Part shown: positions 1,521 to 63,488 of the stretch, piece by piece
Layout of the letters: each line of letters starts with the position of its first letter
Position numbering within the stretch: position 1 is the first letter of the stretch
Sequence record: OZ346212.1
DNA: 64,000 nucleotides
Origin: a phage
Reading direction: 5' to 3' (one strand)
Made by a program: the position numbers and the translations under genes
The notes under the pieces: generated by a model
Database searches by the model: none
Seen by the model: the letters and a program-made list of their open reading frames with translations, nothing else
Told to the model about the DNA's origin: nothing

Positions 1521-3944
1521 ATGAGCATGTGGTCGTTCGACTTTGAGTCATCCGGTTTGCTGGAAGACCCAGATCTTTATTATCACTGCGGCCTGTTTAA
1601 AGAGCTGAATAAGAACCGTTTTATGCTGTTCCTTCCTCTAAATGACCGCACACACTACTCCGAGGAGGATATAGAAAAGGCTAAGAACTTCATTCTGGCA
1701 AAGAAAACTCTTTATAAAGATTTTGAAGTTCGCATAGCAGATTTTTCAGAGTTGGAAGGTTGGCTTACAGGAAATTCTGACTGGTCACCAACAGCTTTGA
1801 ACTGCCATAACTGCTACAGTTATGACTTTATGCTGATGGAAAGATTATCTGGTATTCATTTTGATATGTTCCGTGATCCTAAGTGTATGGGGACTATCAA
1901 CGATCACCAGGTTAACCTGTTTGATACGTTGGCGATGAGCCGAATCTTGTGGCCTGATCGCCCTTTACCAAAAGGTTGTCCGGACTCTGTATTCAACCCG
2001 GTTACTAAGAAAATGCAGCCTGTTGGTCCTCACGGCCTTATGGCATGGGGCTACGCCCTTGGTAACCAGAAAGTTCAAATTGATGACTGGCGCGATCTTC
2101 CGTTATGGAAGTATGTGGATCGTGTATTTGAGGACGTTATCATCCAGGAGCTGCTCTGGAAAGAGCTGGTAGCGGAATCAAAAGGTGTATTCTACGGCAA
2201 ATCTGACATGCAGAACTTTATGTACGATCCTGCCAAAGAGAAGCCGAAAGGGTTCAAGAAGATCACCTGGAAGAACGCATTACGTCGAGGCATGTTGCAG
2301 CACTTCCTGATGGAGCTGCAGGCCCGTCAGGGTGTATACTTCGACATAGATGGGGCTATTGCTTTACGTGACCGCTGCGATGCGTGGATGAAAGAGATCG
2401 CTGATCGTGTTGAACCACAACTGCCTTTAAAAGAGCTGTCAATGTCTCAGCGGCCCAAGTTCCCTGAAAAGCCGTTTAACCAAGATGGGACAATCTCTAA
2501 TAATGGTTGGAAATGGTTAAAAGATAAGCTTGGCTATCCTGTGGACATGAGTGCTTTAGAGTTCAAAGCCCCACCTAAGCGAGCATTTACCTCTACAGGA
2601 GATGTCAGTAAGATGGGGATAAAATGGTGTGAAGAGATGGGCTGCAAAGACCACGATAAGATGGCTGATTTCTTGAGAGGTTATATTAAGGGCACCTCCA
2701 CACCACAACCTTTACCTAAAGAGCTGATGGATCAGGCAATAAGCGATCTGCAACAGAAGCGAATGCCTGACTGCAAGATACCTATGAAAATCAGCAATCA
2801 GGACGACATTAAGCGATACCTGATCAGTGCTGGTTGGCTTCCGACAATGTGGAGAACTAAGGATGTAACTAAGGACAGCAAGAAGAAAGCTCTACCTGAT
2901 GCAGATGTTGATGCACGAGTATATGCATACATGGACGAGCTTTTAGAGTCAGAGTATTGTGACCTAATTATCAACTTCTGGAACAAAACTGATGCTAAGT
3001 TTCAGACAACAGTGCACAAGTTCCGAAGCTTTCCTAACTCCGAAAGGATTAAAAAGGAAGTGTTCGGGAAAATACGCAGAAAAGCCAGGGCACTTATTAC
3101 TTCTCCGCAACTGAAAGATACGTTTGGACACCTATGTCCGAATCTTGAAAAATTGAACGGAGAGATGGCTAAAGATATCGTCTTGTGGTTATCATTGCGA
3201 AACCGCAGATCGGTCCTTGATCCAATCAAGGAGGATAAGGTTGATACTGGTCTTCTTAATCACCCACGTTTGAAGATTGACCATAAGCTTCCTGCTAAAA
3301 GCTCTGGATTAACAAACACTTCCCGACAGAAACACAGTATTTGTGCAAACATGCCTAAACCATCTCCTAAAGTGGTTATGGGTAAAGAGATGCGTAGCTT
3401 GTGGGGTGTTCCTCCTGGATACTTTGAGATCGGTATTGACGGGTCCAACTTAGAGCAGCTTATCGGGGCTTGGGGTGCCTTTGAGTTCGACAACGGCTTG
3501 TACTATGATGTTGTAAGTAACGGGGACGCACACCAAAACAATGCTGAGGCATATACAAAAGTAGCAGGCAGAGAGGTGTCTCGTAACGACGGTAAACCTA
3601 TCACGTATGGGGTTATGTACGGGGCACAAAAAGATAAAGTTGCAGATATGCTGGATATCTCCCCAGAGTTGGGGCAAAGGGTGATCGATGCACTTTGGGA
3701 TGCCAACCCAGGTCTTAAGGGGCGCAAAGAGGATCTGGAGAAATTCTGGGAAGCAACAGGTAAGAAGTTTATCTACTCTTTTGATGGTCATGCTATCTGG
3801 ACCCGATCTAAACACTCTTTACTTAATGCATACCAACAAAATGGCGGCGCATCGTTGTGTGACTTAGTTGGGATACTCATGCACCATCAAATGGTGAAGC
3901 GTGGGTGGTACGATGAAGGTGTTCGTCGTATTATCTATTACCAT
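1521..3944 (+). CDS. DNA polymerase family A, exon 1
   Basis: RBS AAGGAG before ATG 1521; Exo I FDFESSG; motif B KPITYGVMYGAQ; ORF ends at the His that should start motif C (HDE). Confidence 0.85.
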
Positions 3945-12337: not shown

Positions 12338-12583
12338 ATGAACAAAGGGTGGACATTTGTAGACGGCGTTAAAAACATGCCTCTAGGAAAGTATATTGTA
12401 GCCATGGCAGATGAGAATGGCAAGGTTGATTTCGGAGTTTGCGAGGTTGTTCTTGCAGGATCTGGTGACTATGCTCACAAAACTGGGATAATTAACGGTC
12501 ATTTCTACTTTGATTACAACCCTGTTGTGGCGTATATGGCTATGCCAGAGTTCGAGCTCCCAAAGGAAGGTGCAGATGTTTAA
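12338..12583 (+). CDS. hypothetical protein
   Basis: ORF track; RBS CAGGAGA. Confidence 0.45.
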   Translation: MNKGWTFVDGVKNMPLGKYIVAMADENGKVDFGVCEVVLAGSGDYAHKTGIINGHFYFDYNPVVAYMAMPEFELPKEGADV

Positions 12584-12773
12584 GCTTAAATCTGCATGGA
12601 ACATCGCTGTGGGGGACGAGATCCGTATCCCAGGTGGAAAGACCATTATGAAAATATCTCGTATCGAGTACGAAGGTGATCGTGTATTTCATATCTTTGC
12701 AGAAGATGGTCGAGAGATTTATATACAGGTAGGATCTCACATCTATATTCGTAAGAAAGGGGAGGACAAATGA
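12576..12773 (+). CDS. hypothetical protein
   Basis: Start moved to ATG 12576 after RBS AAGGAAGG. Confidence 0.4.
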   Translation: MFKLKSAWNIAVGDEIRIPGGKTIMKISRIEYEGDRVFHIFAEDGREIYIQVGSHIYIRKKGEDK

Positions 12774-13099
12774 CAGAGATCATCATTTCAACTGCAGGGT
12801 ATGTATTCCTGACAATCATTGCACTGGCTATTTTGGTGACAGTGTATGGGTTTGTTATCCTTCCTATCCTTGAGACATTTAGTTTGTGTCGGTGTTGGAG
12901 AAAAGCTTACGGTCCACAACCATGGAAGGACTGGCCCCACCTGGTGCGCTTAGCGTTCTCTTATGCTTACGATCACTCCAGTAGTGCATGCATAACCGGA
13001 TACCACGCCCACAACTGGAGCTGGGAAGGGTTGAGGAAATGGAATGTTACAAAGACCATACCTCTGCGCATGTACAAACCTAAAAACAAAGACAACTGA
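12770..13099 (+). CDS. membrane protein
   Basis: N-terminal hydrophobic helix; RBS GGGGAGGA. Confidence 0.45.
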   Translation: MTEIIISTAGYVFLTIIALAILVTVYGFVILPILETFSLCRCWRKAYGPQPWKDWPHLVRLAFSYAYDHSSSACITGYHAHNWSWEGLRKWNVTKTIPLRMYKPKNKDN

Positions 13100-13705
13100 T
13101 ACTTGAAAATTCCTGGCATATCAAGTATAAGGGGGATTTCTAAAATGGATTTCCTCCTTTTGATATTTCACCGGGCTGGATATTTTAAAATTCTTAGAAA
13201 ATCAGAAAATGGATCGAAAACTAAAATGGATTTTTCAGAGTAGGCGCGACAAGCTGAATAACTCATCCTATCGTTTGCACCATATTCCAGGCCACCATTA
13301 TAGATTTCCCACACATGCTAACCTCTCCCTACTAGAACTTCCTCCACTTACCCTTGACCTTCTATGGTAACAATCTAACCGCTATCTTGAAGTTGCGGTG
13401 CAGCTTTCCAGGTACTCGATCTACTTTTCATTTCAGGGCTTGGATTTTCTGAAAATTTTTCTCGATAAATTTCTCAGTACTCGATCTGTTTTTCGTTTTC
13501 TGAATCGGATTTTCTGGAAATCGTTCCGGCTCTCAACCTGAAATTTTTGGGGACGAAATCGATTTTTCGTTTTCAGAAATGGATTTTTAAAATTTCTATA
13601 TGGGAATATTTTAGTGGATACTGTTTTATAGGAAATTGTTACGGAGGGTAATTAGCATGCTAATTAAATTTATTAAATGCGAGGAGTTCTCATTTAGAAT
13701 TTTGA
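13100..13705. repeat. AT-rich non-coding region with reiterated TGGATTTT-type motifs and ~50-bp direct repeats
   Basis: No credible ORF; motif at ~13147, 13181, 13230, 13440, 13510, 13590; direct repeats at ~13407 and ~13475. Confidence 0.6.
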
Positions 13706-14280
13706 ATGATAATCATTCTCGTTTGCAGAATAACGGGCAGGCCCGGTGATTGTCTCCCGGCCCCTGTTGCCCCGGCTTGTTATTATAGTATCACACAGGA
13801 CAAAGAAAGCAAGGACTTTTTGCATAAATTTTTAAATGATAATGATAACCGTTCTCATTTTATGCAGCGCCCATCCCCGGTGGTTGTCTCCCCCGTCACC
13901 GGTGCCTGCCGTCCTTTCGATATGTATATTGTGCCACCTGGCGGGGCCGCTGTCAACACTTTTCAAAAAATTTTTCTAACCTGGTGCGCTAACCGTTGCA
14001 ACCTGGCGGGGCCAGCCTGGCAGGACCTAACTGACCAGGTAGGGGAGAATGAAGGCTTGTAAACCTGGTGGGCCTATGCTACAGGATAGGTAACAATTGA
14101 AGAGGAGGTACAAAAATGATATGATCCCCCTGGAAAATGTAGCTATTAATGACTCTGAGGCTATCGCCCTGGTTGAAAAGGCTATGGCGGGAGCGTTGGA
14201 ACATAAAGAAGAGTACGAAAATGGTGGTTAACCTGGCGGGGGCGGCAGGTGGATTCTATCATAAAAATAATTTAAAATAG
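13706..14280. repeat. GC-rich repeat family (AACCTGGCGGGGCC) and duplicated ~60-bp segments
   Basis: Motif at ~13936, 14000, 14229 (also 20056); segments 13700-13790 and 13830-13920 share TGATAAT...CCGGTG(A/G)TTGTCTCCC. Confidence 0.55.
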
Positions 14281-20944: not shown

Positions 20945-21271
20945 AAGCACATAGCCGCCAGATCTCAGAATTTACGTACGCTCACCAGTCTATAGCCTGC
21001 TAAGTATTTATTCCAACCATAGAATAACGGAATAGTCAATACCTGCATAAAATAATTATTCGTGTAAACTGCATAACATAAATCGGCTAGGATGTCAACA
21101 TTTTTCGTAAACAGCTCGAAATTATAACGGTGAGTTATAATAAACAGAGAAATCTTTAGTCGTCTAATGTTTACTGTACATTACTATACTGACTGGAATC
21201 ATTAGATGACTAAGAGAAAGATAAGAAATCATTAACAATGCAATTGTTTTATTCGTAACAATAAGGCAACT

Positions 21272-21563
21272 ATGCAAACGGATGGCATGGCGCGACGGAG
21301 TCGCGACATAATATAAAAGCAGTAACCATCACCCCCGTGATAGTTTGTCTGCAAACTATTAATCAGATCATAGTTGCCTTGTATTTAGTTAATCATGACA
21401 TAACAAGCAAGGCAACTATAGATCTGCTAATAGTTGCCCTGCTTTTATATTATGTCATAGATTATTAGCCTGTTAATTGTTAGTCAGTCAAATCAACAAC
21501 GTTATCATTTCAGTCTTTATTGTTGTTGATCGTTATTGTTATCATGCAAACGAATGGCATGGC
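21272..21563. repeat. dyad-symmetry cluster bounded by 20-bp direct repeats
   Basis: ATGCAAACG(G/A)ATGGCATGGC at 21272 and 21544; between them AGGCAACTAT in both orientations, ATGACATAA/TTATGTCAT and CGCGAC/GTCGCG palindromes. Confidence 0.6.
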
Positions 21564-21936
21564 TTATCATTTTTGAGTAAACAATCTATACGTGAACAGT
21601 GAGGCAAGTTAGCAGCCGATAGATTAGATATTAACCTGCAGACTTCTGACCGTCTAGACGTCTAAACGCCCACACAACAAGGATTATACATACAATACTG
21701 AATGTAAACAGGGCCGCAAAAATGCTACCATACCACAGATTGTAAATTTTTCATGCAGCACTTGACAAAGAGGAGAACTTAATTTTATCAGGATAGGCAA
21801 GAATGTCAAGGCATGACTGCTCACTAAACAAGCAAACAGTCATGTGTGGGAGGTAAGTGATTGTGGTGGTAGGAAATTTAGTTGAAAGATGTGTTATAGG
21901 TGCTTCCAGCACTTTAGCCGGGCAGCTAATTGTGTG

Positions 21937-60094: not shown

Positions 60095-60649
60095 ATGAAA
60101 TACTTTGTAACAAGCGACACACACTTTCTCCACCAGCGGGTCATGGAGTTTGATTCATGTCAAAAACACAGATCTCAGTATGATCACAATCTTGACAGTA
60201 TGAATGCAGGAATCATCGCCGAGTGGAACTCTGTTGTGTCACCTGCAGACACTGTGTTCCACTTGGGAGATATTGCGTGCACTAATGATAAGAATATCAA
60301 CAACTTACTTCCAGATATTCTAAATATGTTGAACGGACATATTATTCTTGTTCGTGGCAACCATGACACAAGGACGACTGTCAGAATTATGAAAGAGTTC
60401 GGTCATGAGGTTGTAGATTATTACGAGCTTCGCCACAACAAGAATTTGATCTGTATGAGCCATTACCAGTTTGCAAAGTGGAACAGAAAGCCTCACGGAT
60501 CAGTCCAACTGTTCGGTCATGCTCACGGAACCACACAACAGTTGTTTGGCAGGCAGCTTGATGTCGGTTGGGATGTGTGGGGGAGACTCTTACCATTAGA
60601 AGAGGCATACCGTATTGCAATGAGTTTTGATATTGACAGCAGGGAGTAA
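60095..60649 (+). CDS. calcineurin-like metallophosphoesterase
   Basis: DTHF, GDIACT, VRGNHD, GHAHG motifs; start moved to ATG 60095. Confidence 0.8.
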   Translation: MKYFVTSDTHFLHQRVMEFDSCQKHRSQYDHNLDSMNAGIIAEWNSVVSPADTVFHLGDIACTNDKNINNLLPDILNMLNGHIILVRGNHDTRTTVRIMKEFGHEVVDYYELRHNKNLICMSHYQFAKWNRKPHGSVQLFGHAHGTTQQLFGRQLDVGWDVWGRLLPLEEAYRIAMSFDIDSRE

Positions 60650-60696
60650 TCCCTGCTATTTTAAAGAAAATTGCCACACAAGGAGAATCAGGAGAT

Positions 60697-61047
60697 ATGA
60701 AAGATGGGGATAAGCTGCTATATCTTAAAGTCCCCCTTGAAATACTATCTATGTCAAAAGTTTTGAATGACACAACTGGGGAGGTTGTTGTTCTTGACTT
60801 GTATGACAAGATCGTATACTGCTACCTGCACAACTGGTATAAGCTTGGAGGAAATTCACGCTTCACACCAAGCACAAGGAAAATTGCAGCAGATGTTGGG
60901 ATAAAGAAAACAAAAGCAGCAGCGTGCGTTAAAACTTTAGAATGTGCAGGAGTGGTTGAAACATCCACACAAGGGAGAGGTAAAAGATGCACATTTTCCA
61001 AAGTTTTGCCACCAGAAGAAGTTATTCGGATGTCAACAACTGGTTAG
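60697..61047 (+). CDS. HTH DNA-binding protein (possible initiator/regulator)
   Basis: RBS AAGGAGA; helix-turn-helix-like STRKIAADVGIKKTKAAACVKTLECAGVVE. Confidence 0.5.
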   Translation: MKDGDKLLYLKVPLEILSMSKVLNDTTGEVVVLDLYDKIVYCYLHNWYKLGGNSRFTPSTRKIAADVGIKKTKAAACVKTLECAGVVETSTQGRGKRCTFSKVLPPEEVIRMSTTG

Positions 61048-61122
61048 ACCAGTAAAAACTTAAATATCTGTACTATAAGGATTCGTATGTTTTATGTTCG
61101 CCATGGAACGGATACTATTAAC

Positions 61123-61203
61123 TGTCCGTGATACGGACACTACTGTCCGTCACGCGGACACATCTGCCCGTAATACGGACACTAACTGTCCGTGATACGG
61201 ACA
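61123..61203. promoter_or_regulatory. array of four 17-bp palindromic sites (TGTCCGTgatACGGACA) at 21-22 bp phasing
   Basis: Sites at 61123, 61144, 61165, 61187; followed by a ~120-bp AT-rich tract. Confidence 0.65.
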
Positions 61204-61329
61204 CATAAAGAATATAACTAAAATAACTAAATAATAAAAAATAAAAGATCTAGTACTTATGGTACTAAGTACATATACTTAACTTATGTAGAATATACTA
61301 GATCCTAAGTACCATGTTTTAAATTTATT

Positions 61330-61600
61330 ACTTACTATGGGCAGTGTCGGCCCTTCATTGGCACTCGCCTACGAGGGGGCGAGATGCCGGGCCTCCTTGG
61401 CGCACACAATAACAGAAGTTCATACATGCAGGTCTGTTAACATGTGTGGGAGCGAAGCGATAGCGCAGGCCAAAGGCCGAGCACTGATGTGGACCACCGA
61501 CGAAAGCTTGCCAGCGCCGTAAGGAGTCGGTTGAGAGTCTCCCGCGCGAGCTTGGATGAAGTTTATGTGTGGAAACTGACAAGAAGGCCCCTAAATCGCT
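61330..61600. ncRNA. GC-rich island, candidate structured RNA
   Basis: Local GC jump; only overlapping both-strand ORFs without RBS; several short hairpins. Confidence 0.25.
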
Positions 61601-61708
61601 CCACAGCTATATAAACTATACCAGGTAATGCAATCGCACCAGTTTGATAGAAAAGCTCGTTACAAAGCGATACAGTGAGTTTTTCTATAACTTGAAGAGG
61701 AGGCAGCT

Positions 61709-62287
61709 ATGGGTTCACGCAAAGATGACCGTGAAAAGATTGCAAAACGTTATCAGAATGAAGAACAGATGGAGAAAACTTTCAAGTGGAAGCCAGGTTT
61801 CCAGCGTAATCATTCTAACGCTCGTGATCGTAAGCATCCGGATAAGTGGCTAACACCGCCAAATGATGGCATGCAGGTTGGGGATGAGAAGGAGATGTCG
61901 CCTGGAAAAGATGGCAACTACATTCGCACTAAGGACGCTGGTCCAAAGGATGACAGCTATCTTGTAGATAAGGTTCTTGATGGTATCAATGTAGATGTTG
62001 ACACTGCACGAAACCTTTTTCTTGGGTGGTATCGCACAGGTTTTTTCGACATCAAGGCTATTCGTCGTGTTTGTGATATTAAAAAGTCTGCATATGATGA
62101 CGACTCGTTACATCGCACCCTGAGACAATATTCAGAAAGATATGGTCATCCGGTTATCACTCTTGACGATGTTAACGAAGTGATGTATCATGCAGAGGTT
62201 GTTGCAGGAAGATTCGGTGATGCATATCTTGATATCCTTTCTGCAAAGGATGAGGTAATGTTAAATAAGATTTACTATGAACGCTGA
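61709..62287 (+). CDS. hypothetical protein
   Basis: Strong RBS AGAGGAGG. Confidence 0.55.
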   Translation: MGSRKDDREKIAKRYQNEEQMEKTFKWKPGFQRNHSNARDRKHPDKWLTPPNDGMQVGDEKEMSPGKDGNYIRTKDAGPKDDSYLVDKVLDGINVDVDTARNLFLGWYRTGFFDIKAIRRVCDIKKSAYDDDSLHRTLRQYSERYGHPVITLDDVNEVMYHAEVVAGRFGDAYLDILSAKDEVMLNKIYYER

Positions 62288-62562: not shown

Positions 62563-62805
62563 ATGTTTAAGGTTAAGCTCGTTTTTCGTTCCATGAATGA
62601 GGATTATTTAGAAGATGAAGGTGAATTTCGTGCACTGGATGATGCAATAGATTTTGCCAACGACTTAGCTTGTATGAATACGGGTTATGGGCTATGCTGT
62701 TGGGATGGTGGTGTTCAGATCGGTGATAGCAAGATCTTCTACTTCTACCCTGAGCCTGATAACAAACAAATTAAGTATGTTTTATTTATTTGTGCTTTAC
62801 AATGA
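62563..62805 (+). CDS. hypothetical protein
   Basis: ORF track. Confidence 0.45.
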   Translation: MFKVKLVFRSMNEDYLEDEGEFRALDDAIDFANDLACMNTGYGLCCWDGGVQIGDSKIFYFYPEPDNKQIKYVLFICALQ

Positions 62806-62829
62806 GGTTGTTTTCGTGTATCATGATGA

Positions 62830-63092
62830 ATATCCAATTTAAAGATGAATTTGATGGCTTTATCTCCGGATGCTTTGAAACAGGGTTCGGAGAAGGCTGA
62901 GTTCCCCTTAGAGGGCTTGATAGTGCACCACACTTAAAATGGTAGGGGCAGCCAGCACATGACGATGTGACCCCAGCCAACCTGTAATAAGGTCGAGCCA
63001 AAGTGCGGTAATGGGCTCTGGTAACCCACTTGTTGGGTCTTGCTGGTCCAGGACGCTGGACAAGTCGCAGGGAATACCACCCTGCGGCGAAC
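62830..63092. ncRNA. GC-rich island, candidate structured RNA
   Basis: GC-rich, overlapping short ORFs on both strands, no RBS. Confidence 0.2.
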
Positions 63093-63121
63093 TTGACAAT
63101 CAGTATTTGCTATGATAAAAT
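63093..63121 (+). promoter_or_regulatory. sigma70-like promoter (TTGACA-N17-TAAAAT)
   Basis: Read from sequence. Confidence 0.55.
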
Positions 63122-63149: not shown

Positions 63150-63488
63150 ATGGCGGATACAACTAAAAAGCGTCGCCGTAGAGGCAGACCTCTGAAAGAG
63201 GAGTCCAACGCCATTCAGCTAGAGAAGAACATCCTTGATATGAAGGAATCTTTTATAGCGATGGTTCCAGAAGCTCACAAAGTTTTAAGAGAGCTGATGT
63301 TGGACCCGAAAACCAAACAAAATATTCGTCAAAGCATTGCAGAGTATGTTCTTGATAAGGCAGACCGAATGCAGGAAGAATATGATGAGATGTTTGGTGA
63401 AGAGGAAGAGGTGGTAGTAGAAGAGGCTGAAAAACCAGCACCTTTTATGCCATTCACCACAGAAATACAGCCTGTTGGCAATAGTTAA
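63150..63488 (+). CDS. hypothetical protein with basic N-terminus
   Basis: Start moved to ATG 63150 after RBS GGAGGA; KKRRRRGRP then acidic tail. Confidence 0.5.
   Translation: MADTTKKRRRRGRPLKEESNAIQLEKNILDMKESFIAMVPEAHKVLRELMLDPKTKQNIRQSIAEYVLDKADRMQEEYDEMFGEEEEVVVEEAEKPAPFMPFTTEIQPVGNS

Follow-up and report, generated by a model that had tools for sequence, protein, structure and literature searches.

The replication origin of phage lambda is composed of dyad-symmetric iterons within the O gene, an adjacent AT-rich unwinding tract and then a palindrome, and transcription passes through the region. RK2 oriV is organized into iterons, an AT-rich region, and a GC-rich region. Here we describe a locus in a 64,000-nucleotide stretch of phage DNA (sequence record OZ346212.1; hereafter the window, to whose first letter coordinates refer unless isim positions are given), in which the gene for the winged-helix protein ORF79 of phage rV5 is followed by an array of four palindromic sites and an AT-rich tract. 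The array, the tract, and the ORF79 protein probably form an iteron-type replication origin, or one of the origins, of Vequintavirus phages, with the initiator reduced to its DNA-binding domain. PLE RepA is a RepA_N-type initiator that binds semi-palindromic iterons at an intergenic origin, as shown by electrophoretic mobility shift assays and genetics, and was placed in the RepA_N family from its structure, not its sequence (PMC7145576). The N-terminal domain of PLE RepA co-varies with the origin, and recruitment of the replisome is presumed to be the task of the C-terminal domain (PMC8263062). The protein works with ICP1 PolA, a gp4-type helicase-primase, and an SF1B helicase, the last of which is needed (PMC7145576, PMC8263062). 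In rV5, the origin was sought by skew analysis, which was inconclusive, and was left undefined (PMC3606486); we found no published origin for rV5-like phages in the literature.

The region is 99.9% identical to that of Escherichia phage isim (MN850597), the complete genome of which (138 kb) was used for genome-wide comparisons. It matches 119 GenBank phage records, all of them from Vequintavirus (rV5-like myoviruses with genomes of ~136 kb). The array is located in a 660-bp gap between ORF79 and ORF77 of rV5, where, unlike in the tightly packed remainder of the genome, there is no credible gene. It consists of four 22-nucleotide direct repeats that start at positions 61119, 61140, 61161, and 61183, with a spacing of 21, 21, and 22 bp, and each repeat holds one 17-bp palindrome. 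The repeat search thus recovered the four 17-bp sites that the original prediction had placed at 61123, 61144, 61165, and 61187, two helical turns apart. Iterons 1 (61123–61139) and 4 (61187–61203) have the identical sequence TGTCCGTGATACGGACA, iteron 2 (61144–61160) is TGTCCGTCACGCGGACA, and iteron 3 (61165–61181) is TGCCCGTAATACGGACA. The single mismatches that had been attributed to two of the sites hold for their dyad symmetry and not for comparison with the reference copy, from which iteron 2 differs at three positions and iteron 3 at two. The feature invariant across the sites is the half-site pair TGTCCG-N5-CGGACA. Tandem Repeats Finder describes the array as 4.0 copies with a period of 21 (score 110), the sole substantial tandem array in the window. 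Chance would produce 0.12 matches to the motif per window, the observed count was reached in none of 100 shuffles, and the four sites are the only matches with up to one mismatch in the isim genome.

The array is adjoined by an AT-rich tract (61204–61335), a candidate DNA-unwinding element, which has the anticipated A+T content of ~80% (G+C 0.19–0.20). The tract has the lowest G+C content of the genome for intervals of 100 and 130 bp (next lowest 0.25–0.26) and is the least stable duplex, according to nearest-neighbour energy, at lengths of 50, 100, and 130 bp (−134.5 kcal/mol, relative to a genome mean of −173.6 with a standard deviation of 6.6). It contains the proposed inverted repeat GATCTAGTA (61247) / TACTAGATC (61296), which was also detected in the repeat search, two GATC sites (61247 and 61301), and three copies of TAAGTAC/GTACTTA. 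At its distal end, the tract is followed by a GC-rich imperfect palindrome (61343–61390), flanked on either side by hypervariable bases, which may fold into a DNA hairpin of −14.5 kcal/mol (z −2.47). The palindrome opens a GC-rich non-coding island (61337–61640), the presence of which had also been noted correctly, and the highest-GC 250-bp interval of the genome (0.576) lies within positions 61337–61600. The region is not enriched in DnaA boxes or integration host factor (IHF) sites, with one weak DnaA-box-like match and one IHF-like match, at or below the genome density.

The sequences of twelve Vequintavirus genomes were aligned across the 660-bp gap. The array has a nucleotide diversity of 0.026, the AT-rich tract one of 0.016, and the GC-rich hairpin one of 0.003, compared with ~0.27 for the 24 bp preceding the array and for the 7 bp between the tract and the hairpin. 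Diversity in the array and the tract is thus about one tenth of that in the adjacent spacers. The spacer between the stop codon of ORF79 and the array (61048–61122) can be divided into 51 conserved bp (diversity 0.031) and the 24 hypervariable bp (0.265). Only one of the 48 columns of the GC-rich palindrome is variable, and 1-bp insertions or deletions are limited to its loop and a G-run.

Natural isolates contain three or four intact array units. Every deletion in the array removes a clean 21–22-bp unit, so that the remaining sites are intact and in phase, with unchanged half-sites. Phages bov22_2, V18, and typing phage 4 have one unit fewer in the region of sites 2 and 3, which are fused in bov22_2 and V18, whereas typing phage 4 lost site 2; the unit of iteron 1 is lost in phage A135 and that of iteron 4 in phage A112b. 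Changes within sites are confined to position 7 and the central five bases, and iteron 2 of phage Aya is the perfect palindrome TGTCCGC-CAC-GCGGACA. Each unit is capable of forming a 6–7-bp stem. Nevertheless, the mismatch in one half-site of iteron 3 (TGCCCG), which produces a C–A mismatch, is retained wherever the unit is present intact, and the position-7 change in phage SYGMH1 disrupts the pairing and the dyad. Conservation of the sequence of the array rather than of its pairing argues for a protein-binding array over RNA hairpins.

The gene located just upstream (60697–61047, plus strand), which the original prediction had correctly assigned to a helix-turn-helix (HTH) protein, encodes the 116-residue winged-helix protein ORF79, the putative binder of the array. 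It is the single representative of its kind in the genome and close to an orphan, confined to Vequintavirus among 50,697 phage records. The GenBank label of the protein is ‘putative transcriptional regulator’, RefSeq already lists it as a ‘replication initiation protein’, and the repeats are annotated in some records. The Pfam scores of ORF79 are 24.5 bits for HTH_36 (cut-off 25) and 27.4 bits for DUF6945 (cut-off 28), and homologues exceed the cut-offs in phage phiPMW (HTH_36 42.6, DUF6945 29.5) and Henunavirus (DUF6945 32.2). In PHROGs, ORF79 belongs to family 12838 ‘replication initiation protein’ with an expectation value (E) of 5e-80, and has weaker matches to other initiator families. 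There is no match to the Pfam families Phage_rep_O or RepA_N (PF06970) at E ≤ 1, and Pfam detects no nuclease or terminase-type domain. An exhaustive phmmer search of 1.84 billion representatives provided eight matches, a word-indexed protein search with the single ORF79 sequence retrieved only near-identical proteins, and no relatives were found in IMG/VR by protein or by the exact junction pattern.

The closest solved relative of ORF79, both by sequence and by fold, is PDB 4RO3, the N-terminal DNA-binding domain of RepA from the Vibrio cholerae phage satellite PLE. The ORF79 sequence alone matches 4RO3 with an E of 3e-6 (residues 12–89), a profile that includes distant matches does so with 1.7e-15, and the identity over the stretch aligned by fold is ~28%. 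The structure of ORF79 was predicted by AlphaFold2 with a mean confidence (pLDDT) of 76 using a 20-sequence alignment, compared to 40 using four sequences. In a Foldseek search with the model, 4RO3 is the top PDB match, with a template-modelling (TM) score of 0.64, followed by the N-terminal domains of staphylococcal RepA proteins (4PQL, 4PT7, and 5KBJ), of which 5KBJ is a Rep–DNA complex, and generic winged-helix regulators rank below the RepA_N domains. The sequence matches and the model suggest that ORF79 is a stand-alone iteron-binding domain of the RepA_N/HTH_36 type. The rV5 protein is thus equivalent to the DNA-binding domain of initiators only. Longer metagenomic homologues of ORF79 (P0011, P0014, P0019, P0021, and also P0009; ~195–217 residues) have acidic tails that finish in ...D(A/E)PF or ...EEPF and resemble the C-terminal interaction tip of the bacterial single-stranded DNA-binding protein; the rV5 protein has no such tail.

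The locus resembles lambda ori in that tandem dyad-symmetric iterons, about two helical turns apart, are adjoined by an AT-rich tract and then a palindrome, the DNA-binding domain of the presumed binder is encoded immediately upstream with the same polarity, and the region is probably transcribed through. The likeness to lambda ori that the original prediction had pointed out thus holds for the order of the iterons and the AT-rich tract, but does not extend to the protein, which has no Phage_rep_O match and comprises the DNA-binding domain only. ‘O-like’ PHROG families match only relatives of ORF79, and weakly, and the rV5 protein has no equivalent of the P-binding C-terminal domain of O. Furthermore, the sequences of the iterons are unrelated, the rV5 gene ends at position 61047, 75 bp before the iterons, which places the origin outside the gene, and rV5 brings its own T7-type replisome, whereas lambda borrows DnaB. 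The order of iterons, AT-rich tract, and GC-rich stretch corresponds to that of RK2 oriV. However, the RK2 initiator belongs to the Rep_3/TrfA family, unlike the HTH_36/RepA_N type of rV5, the rV5 locus has no DnaA boxes, and its GC-rich island, with ~270 bp, is much longer.

The PLE system shares with rV5 a small number of semi-palindromic iterons in a non-coding region and the set of PolA, gp4-type, and SF1B replication proteins. In rV5, the set consists of PolA, a gp4d-type primase-helicase, and a PIF1/RecD-like SF1B helicase, and the closest relatives of the polymerase include ICP1 (PMC3606486). In contrast to rV5, PLE RepA has a conserved C-terminal domain, the PLE iterons are ~30 bp long and not 17 bp, and PLE is a satellite, whereas rV5 is a lytic phage itself. 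The staphylococcal RepA_N proteins of pSK41 and pTZ2162 (4PQL, 4PT7, 5KBJ, and 4PTA) share the N-terminal winged-helix dimer fold with the ORF79 model (Foldseek E from 1e-3 to 8e-2, TM ~0.5) and recognize iterons with inverted sub-repeats. Nevertheless, they have no significant sequence match to the rV5 protein (E ~0.8), contain a primase-binding C-terminal domain, and have the origin inside the rep gene.

Public contigs with a total length of 596 Gb were scanned for two adjacent TGTCCG-N5-CGGACA sites (24 fixed bases), for which a rough estimate of the number of chance matches is far below one. The scan identified 12 loci in bacterial genomes or metagenome-assembled genomes (MAGs) and 37 in metagenomes, of which only four are rV5-like. 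In the candidate initiator loci (L027, L037, L038, L040/L056, L044/L048, L045, L052, L055, L060, L063, and L072), arrays of two to seven copies, spaced by 20–25 bp and mostly by 21–22 bp, are located inside an open reading frame (ORF) of 260–450 residues. The N-termini of these proteins match the HTH_36 winged helix (42, 38, and 46 bits, above the cut-off) or have other initiator-type matches, to PHROG families 270, 345, and 8102 ‘replication initiation protein / O-like’ or to the rV5-family profile. Two of the assignments are weaker: L038 has a weak profile match (E 0.0023) and no HTH_36, and L052 has only HTH_IclR, a generic winged-helix match. The array starts at most ~60 bp past the end of the part coding for the winged helix. 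When L042 and L066, the host ORFs of which have no family match, are added to the initiator loci, the G+C content falls in the 80 bp 3′ of the array in nine of the 13 candidate loci, with the same polarity as in rV5. The genes neighbouring L037 and L052 match phage protein families.

The HTH_36 and PHROG 270, 345, and 8102 genes, which are carried by unrelated metagenomic phage contigs, have half-sites identical to those of rV5, in tandem with a 20–25-bp spacing, and their N-terminal domains are homologous to one another and, through profile and PHROG matches, to the rV5 protein. Their order of winged helix, iterons, and usually an AT-richer tract follows the layout of lambda O. The difference is that their array is translated within a protein of 260–450 residues with a variable C-terminal domain, whereas the rV5 protein stops before the array. 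We found neither an experimental study of these genes nor a published description of the TGTCCG-N5-CGGACA motif in the literature.

Phased palindromes accompany short, distant homologues of ORF79 in other large lytic phages. Henunavirus gp227 (107 residues) is adjoined by two TGCTCAATTTGAGCA-type palindromes 23 bp apart, with an AT-rich tract before them. The gene for Pseudomonas phage phiPMW gp115 (136 residues) is accompanied by three GGACA-AAA-TGTCC palindromes, 33 and 23 bp apart, which contain the same half-site GGACA/TGTCC as those of rV5 and are followed by a purine- and AT-rich tract. Both loci are positioned, as in rV5, in a divergent intergenic region beside an RNA ligase/kinase-phosphatase block. 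A winged-helix protein together with nearby phased palindromes and an AT-rich tract is therefore a recurring module. The 9-mer AAAAGATCT is present in the AT-rich tracts of Vequintavirus, Henunavirus, and Seunavirus (noted for 61240–61305 of the window, L010 2780–2910, and L022 1216–2350), and occurs five times in the whole isim genome. In Salmonella phage SSE-121 (Seunavirus, L022), the gap contains an unannotated 120-residue ORF (1788–2147, minus strand) with a weak, sub-threshold HTH_36 match, and the adjoining gene encodes a 186-residue winged-helix protein with weak matches to the nuclease-like domain T5orf172. Both HTH genes adjoin palindromes of the type ATTCCC-N4-GGGAAT, which are separated by 24 bp, and an AT-rich tract in which GATC occurs four times. 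AGGTACA repeats are present in a divergent intergenic region in L018 and L019. Both cases are suggestive, but in these loci, as in SSE-121, the pairing of binder and sites is unclear, and neither is used here as support.

A mechanism for initiation at the locus can be proposed. The ORF79 protein would be produced by early transcription from a predicted sigma-70-like promoter on the plus strand (60633–60662; TTGACA-18-TATTTT with TG before the second hexamer, 10/12 in a consensus scan), the position of which is annotated as P76 in the rV5 record DQ832317. Transcription from this promoter would also cross the array and the AT-rich tract. The array of three or four TGTCCG-N5-CGGACA sites may be occupied by ORF79 dimers, which, because the sites are two helical turns apart, would be placed on one face of the DNA. 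The nucleoprotein complex, possibly aided by read-through transcription, would open the adjacent 130-bp AT-rich tract. The T7-type (gp4-type) primase-helicase would then enter the bubble, possibly together with the SF1B helicase, and PolA-type replication would start. T7-type hexameric primase-helicases can load onto single-stranded DNA without a loader, which would make a recruiter domain of the initiator dispensable. The module may be descended from O-like/HTH_36 initiator genes that carried their own iterons and AT-rich tract after the DNA-binding domain; since the rV5 gene stops 75 bp before the iterons, its initiator would consist of the DNA-binding domain only.

Several observations weigh against the locus being an origin. 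Binding of ORF79 to the array and initiation of replication there are inferred from computation only. The protein ends after the wing, without the presumed replisome-recruiting C-terminal domain of RepA_N/O-type initiators, and no similarity to a separate counterpart of this domain was found in ORF77 or the GC-rich island. ORF79 is restricted to Vequintavirus in the strict sense; the homologues in sister genera are of a different kind or occupy other positions, and in Phapecoctavirus no homologue was found in the stretch examined beside the phosphoesterase gene. The genes for the polymerase and primase-helicase (22–27 kb in isim) are far from the gene beside the array (97 kb). The array is positioned 1.0–1.5 kb from the main transcription divergence of the genome and the global minimum of the cumulative GC skew, which coincide at ~98.5 kb in isim, and the skew reverses locally in a small oppositely transcribed block; because the skew tracks the direction of transcription here, it is not independent evidence for an origin. 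The palindromes of Henunavirus and phiPMW are upstream, in the promoter region of the gene itself, and thus fit autoregulation too. No clear recognition-helix signature is common to the proteins beside the TGTCCG-N5-CGGACA motif. Among the remaining double-motif loci, five neighbouring ORFs encode Mutator-family transposases and three encode YhgA-like transposases; the motif is thus not exclusive to initiators and is used in at least one other context.

Double motifs 21–22 bp apart are also present in GC-rich bacterial MAGs and soil contigs, in those of the loci L024–L072 that are outside the initiator class, and the transposase neighbours suggest that the double palindrome may be located at the ends of insertion sequences or serve another protein family. 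The rV5 array was considered as the end of a Mutator/IS256-like insertion sequence, and this was rejected because no transposase flanks it. ORF77 was rejected as a split-off C-terminal domain, as it has no similarity to the full-length relatives.

The original prediction had left open whether the array is an origin or an operator. If it were an operator, the winged-helix protein would modulate transcription from the four sites and the locus would have no role in replication; the targets might be read-through into ORF77–ORF74 and the tRNA block, or an unrecognised promoter in the AT-rich tract. We consider such an operator, with either target, rather unlikely. The GenBank label of ORF79 and many of its weaker PDB matches, to the repressors CodY, MarR/SlyA, and LexA, are in line with it, but the strongest sequence and fold matches are initiators and not repressors, and arrays of the same motif are located inside initiator genes elsewhere. 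There are also weak ‘wHTH-PRTase associated’ matches for the Henunavirus and Seunavirus proteins encoded ahead of the genes for phosphoribosyl pyrophosphate (PRPP) synthetase and NAMPT. The palindromes of Henunavirus and phiPMW occupy the classic autoregulatory position directly upstream of the homologous gene; however, those of rV5 are downstream of the gene and not at its promoter. The rV5 annotation contains no promoter for ORF77, and the region is therefore probably transcribed through; we found no Vequintavirus transcriptome in the literature. Nevertheless, consensus scans identified no sigma-70-like promoter within positions 61100–61700 and no late-type promoter motif in the region, and thus none that overlaps or adjoins the sites, no further site is present anywhere in the genome, and the 130-bp tract with 80% A+T, the weakest duplex of the genome, exceeds the needs of a promoter. 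Initiator homology, the PHROG assignment, and the same arrays inside O-like initiator genes favour the origin half of the earlier proposal, and the operator half is weakened.

A relic origin, captured from an O-like replicon and no longer firing, would have lost its replication function, and the protein and sites would serve another DNA-level role, such as marking DNA for packaging or recombination, or titrating the iterons of competing phages or satellites. The absence of the C-terminal domain would fit such a history, and the occurrence of the motif in many other phage initiators makes cross-recognition conceivable. Moreover, ICP1 has co-opted a RepA-type DNA-binding domain, in its nuclease Odn, for conflict between elements (PMC8263062), and the Seunavirus homologue is apparently fused to the T5orf172 nuclease-like domain, according to a weak match. 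However, the ORF79 protein itself contains no nuclease or terminase-type domain, and neither the array nor the AT-rich tract has a copy in 5,426 complete E. coli genomes, so that no resident target of the array is evident there. The large terminase gene is ~4.5 kb downstream of the array on the same strand, and the GenBank record MG065672 (A141) begins exactly at the first array repeat, but a record that starts at a repeat is a common assembly artefact, and this one is probably an assembly break. Conservation of the AT-rich tract and the hairpin matches that of the sites, which would be expected of a working origin, and we regard a relic with any of these roles as quite improbable. The palindromes could also act at the RNA level, as hairpins in a read-through mRNA that serve as stabilisers or as processing or termination signals. 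Apart from the stem available in each unit and the probable transcription of the region from an upstream promoter, this is suggested by the folding of the single-stranded array, which is very favourable (−25.1 kcal/mol, z −6.9, calculated with DNA parameters). However, the half-sites do not vary between copies or genomes, which means that the sequence is kept and not the pairing, as is also apparent from the C–A mismatch of iteron 3 and the change in SYGMH1. In addition, there is no T-run after the hairpins and no terminator-like site in the region, and the strict spacing of two helical turns and the occurrence of the motif within the coding regions of initiators fit protein binding. An RNA-level element is therefore highly improbable.

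If the locus is an origin, two points are of wider interest: an initiator that has been pared down to the DNA-binding domain, and a single iteron sequence that recurs in distant phage initiators. It is possible, if doubtful, that a large lytic phage starts replication with a 116-residue winged helix alone and that TGTCCG-N5-CGGACA constitutes an ‘iteron code’ across phyla. This estimate applies jointly to a minimal initiator without a recruiting domain and to a code common to the HTH_36 initiators of phages with hosts in many phyla. With its origin defined, rV5 would be a natural system in which to ask whether a RepA_N/O-like initiator can fire an origin through its N-terminal domain alone, given a self-loading replisome of the T7 type; the sufficiency of this domain was left open in the studies of PLE (PMC7145576, PMC8263062). 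An iteron code would allow unrelated phages and satellites to cross-recognise each other’s origins, and the recurrent sequence, if real, could be a marker for phage origins in metagenomes and hints at cross-talk between co-infecting elements. Few coliphages are isolated as often as those of the rV5 type, which serve in typing and biocontrol and as components of therapy cocktails. Marker-frequency and engineering work would become feasible once the origin and initiator are defined, including the construction of replicons that amplify only during infection.

The GC-rich island downstream of the AT-rich tract contains an 18-bp deletion in rV5, A135, and Pr121LW. It is considered non-coding because insertions and deletions between isolates disrupt its frames: the frame at 61337–61522 is interrupted by 1-bp indels. 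The ORF annotated in rV5 at 61444–61614 has a GTG start without an obvious upstream Shine-Dalgarno sequence and no support as a gene. The island was also rejected as an RNA gene, as it matches no Rfam family and has RNA folding z values of only −1.3 and −1.0, and as a decayed C-terminal domain, as it has no similarity to any full-length initiator relative; the C-terminal domains of these relatives are not conserved among one another. No covariation between the two hypervariable spots of the island is discernible by eye. A conserved inverted repeat, composed of 12-bp arms around an 18-nucleotide loop (61647–61688, plus strand; DNA fold z −2.29), immediately precedes the ribosome-binding site of the gene that follows and may regulate this gene, the ORF at 61709–62287 (PHROG 12226, unknown function).

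A second GC-rich non-coding island (62830–63095) is positioned between the ORFs at 62563–62805 and 63150–63488 and is flanked by sigma-70-like promoters before (62796–62824) and after it (63093–63121). It folds at −96 kcal/mol (z −3.04 relative to shuffles), has no Rfam match, tRNA match, or paralogue in the genome, and may be a gene for a small RNA, located upstream of the tRNA cluster. The two long transcription arms meet in ~0.7 kb of non-coding DNA without long ORFs (20950–21850; isim ~560–1400). There, ATAGTTGCC(C/T)TG is present in several inverted copies, together with a perfect inverted repeat of 18 bp, and these are probably bidirectional terminators. In isim, this region also holds about five ACTGTTCACGCATAG-like 15-bp direct repeats (947–1017), 2.4 copies of AACAATTAGCAAGTT, and, at ~1283, the second least stable tract of the genome; the region may serve for packaging or as a terminus, or be a second origin. 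At ~13370–14060, a segment with a G+C content of 0.26 (at 13541) adjoins one with 0.57 (at 13861). This part of the window corresponds roughly to a 1-kb stretch of isim without annotated genes (12473–13491), has a short tandem repeat at 13445–13472, and its GC-rich part overlaps an unannotated 118-residue ORF (13706–14062). Among the database records, 18 GenBank entries named Campylobacter phage (MG0656xx, UNVERIFIED) are rV5-like coliphage genomes, and a 137.6-kb E. coli ‘plasmid’ from cattle faeces (PLSDB CP057073.1) carries a gene for the ORF79 protein (97% identity) and is as large as an rV5-like genome.

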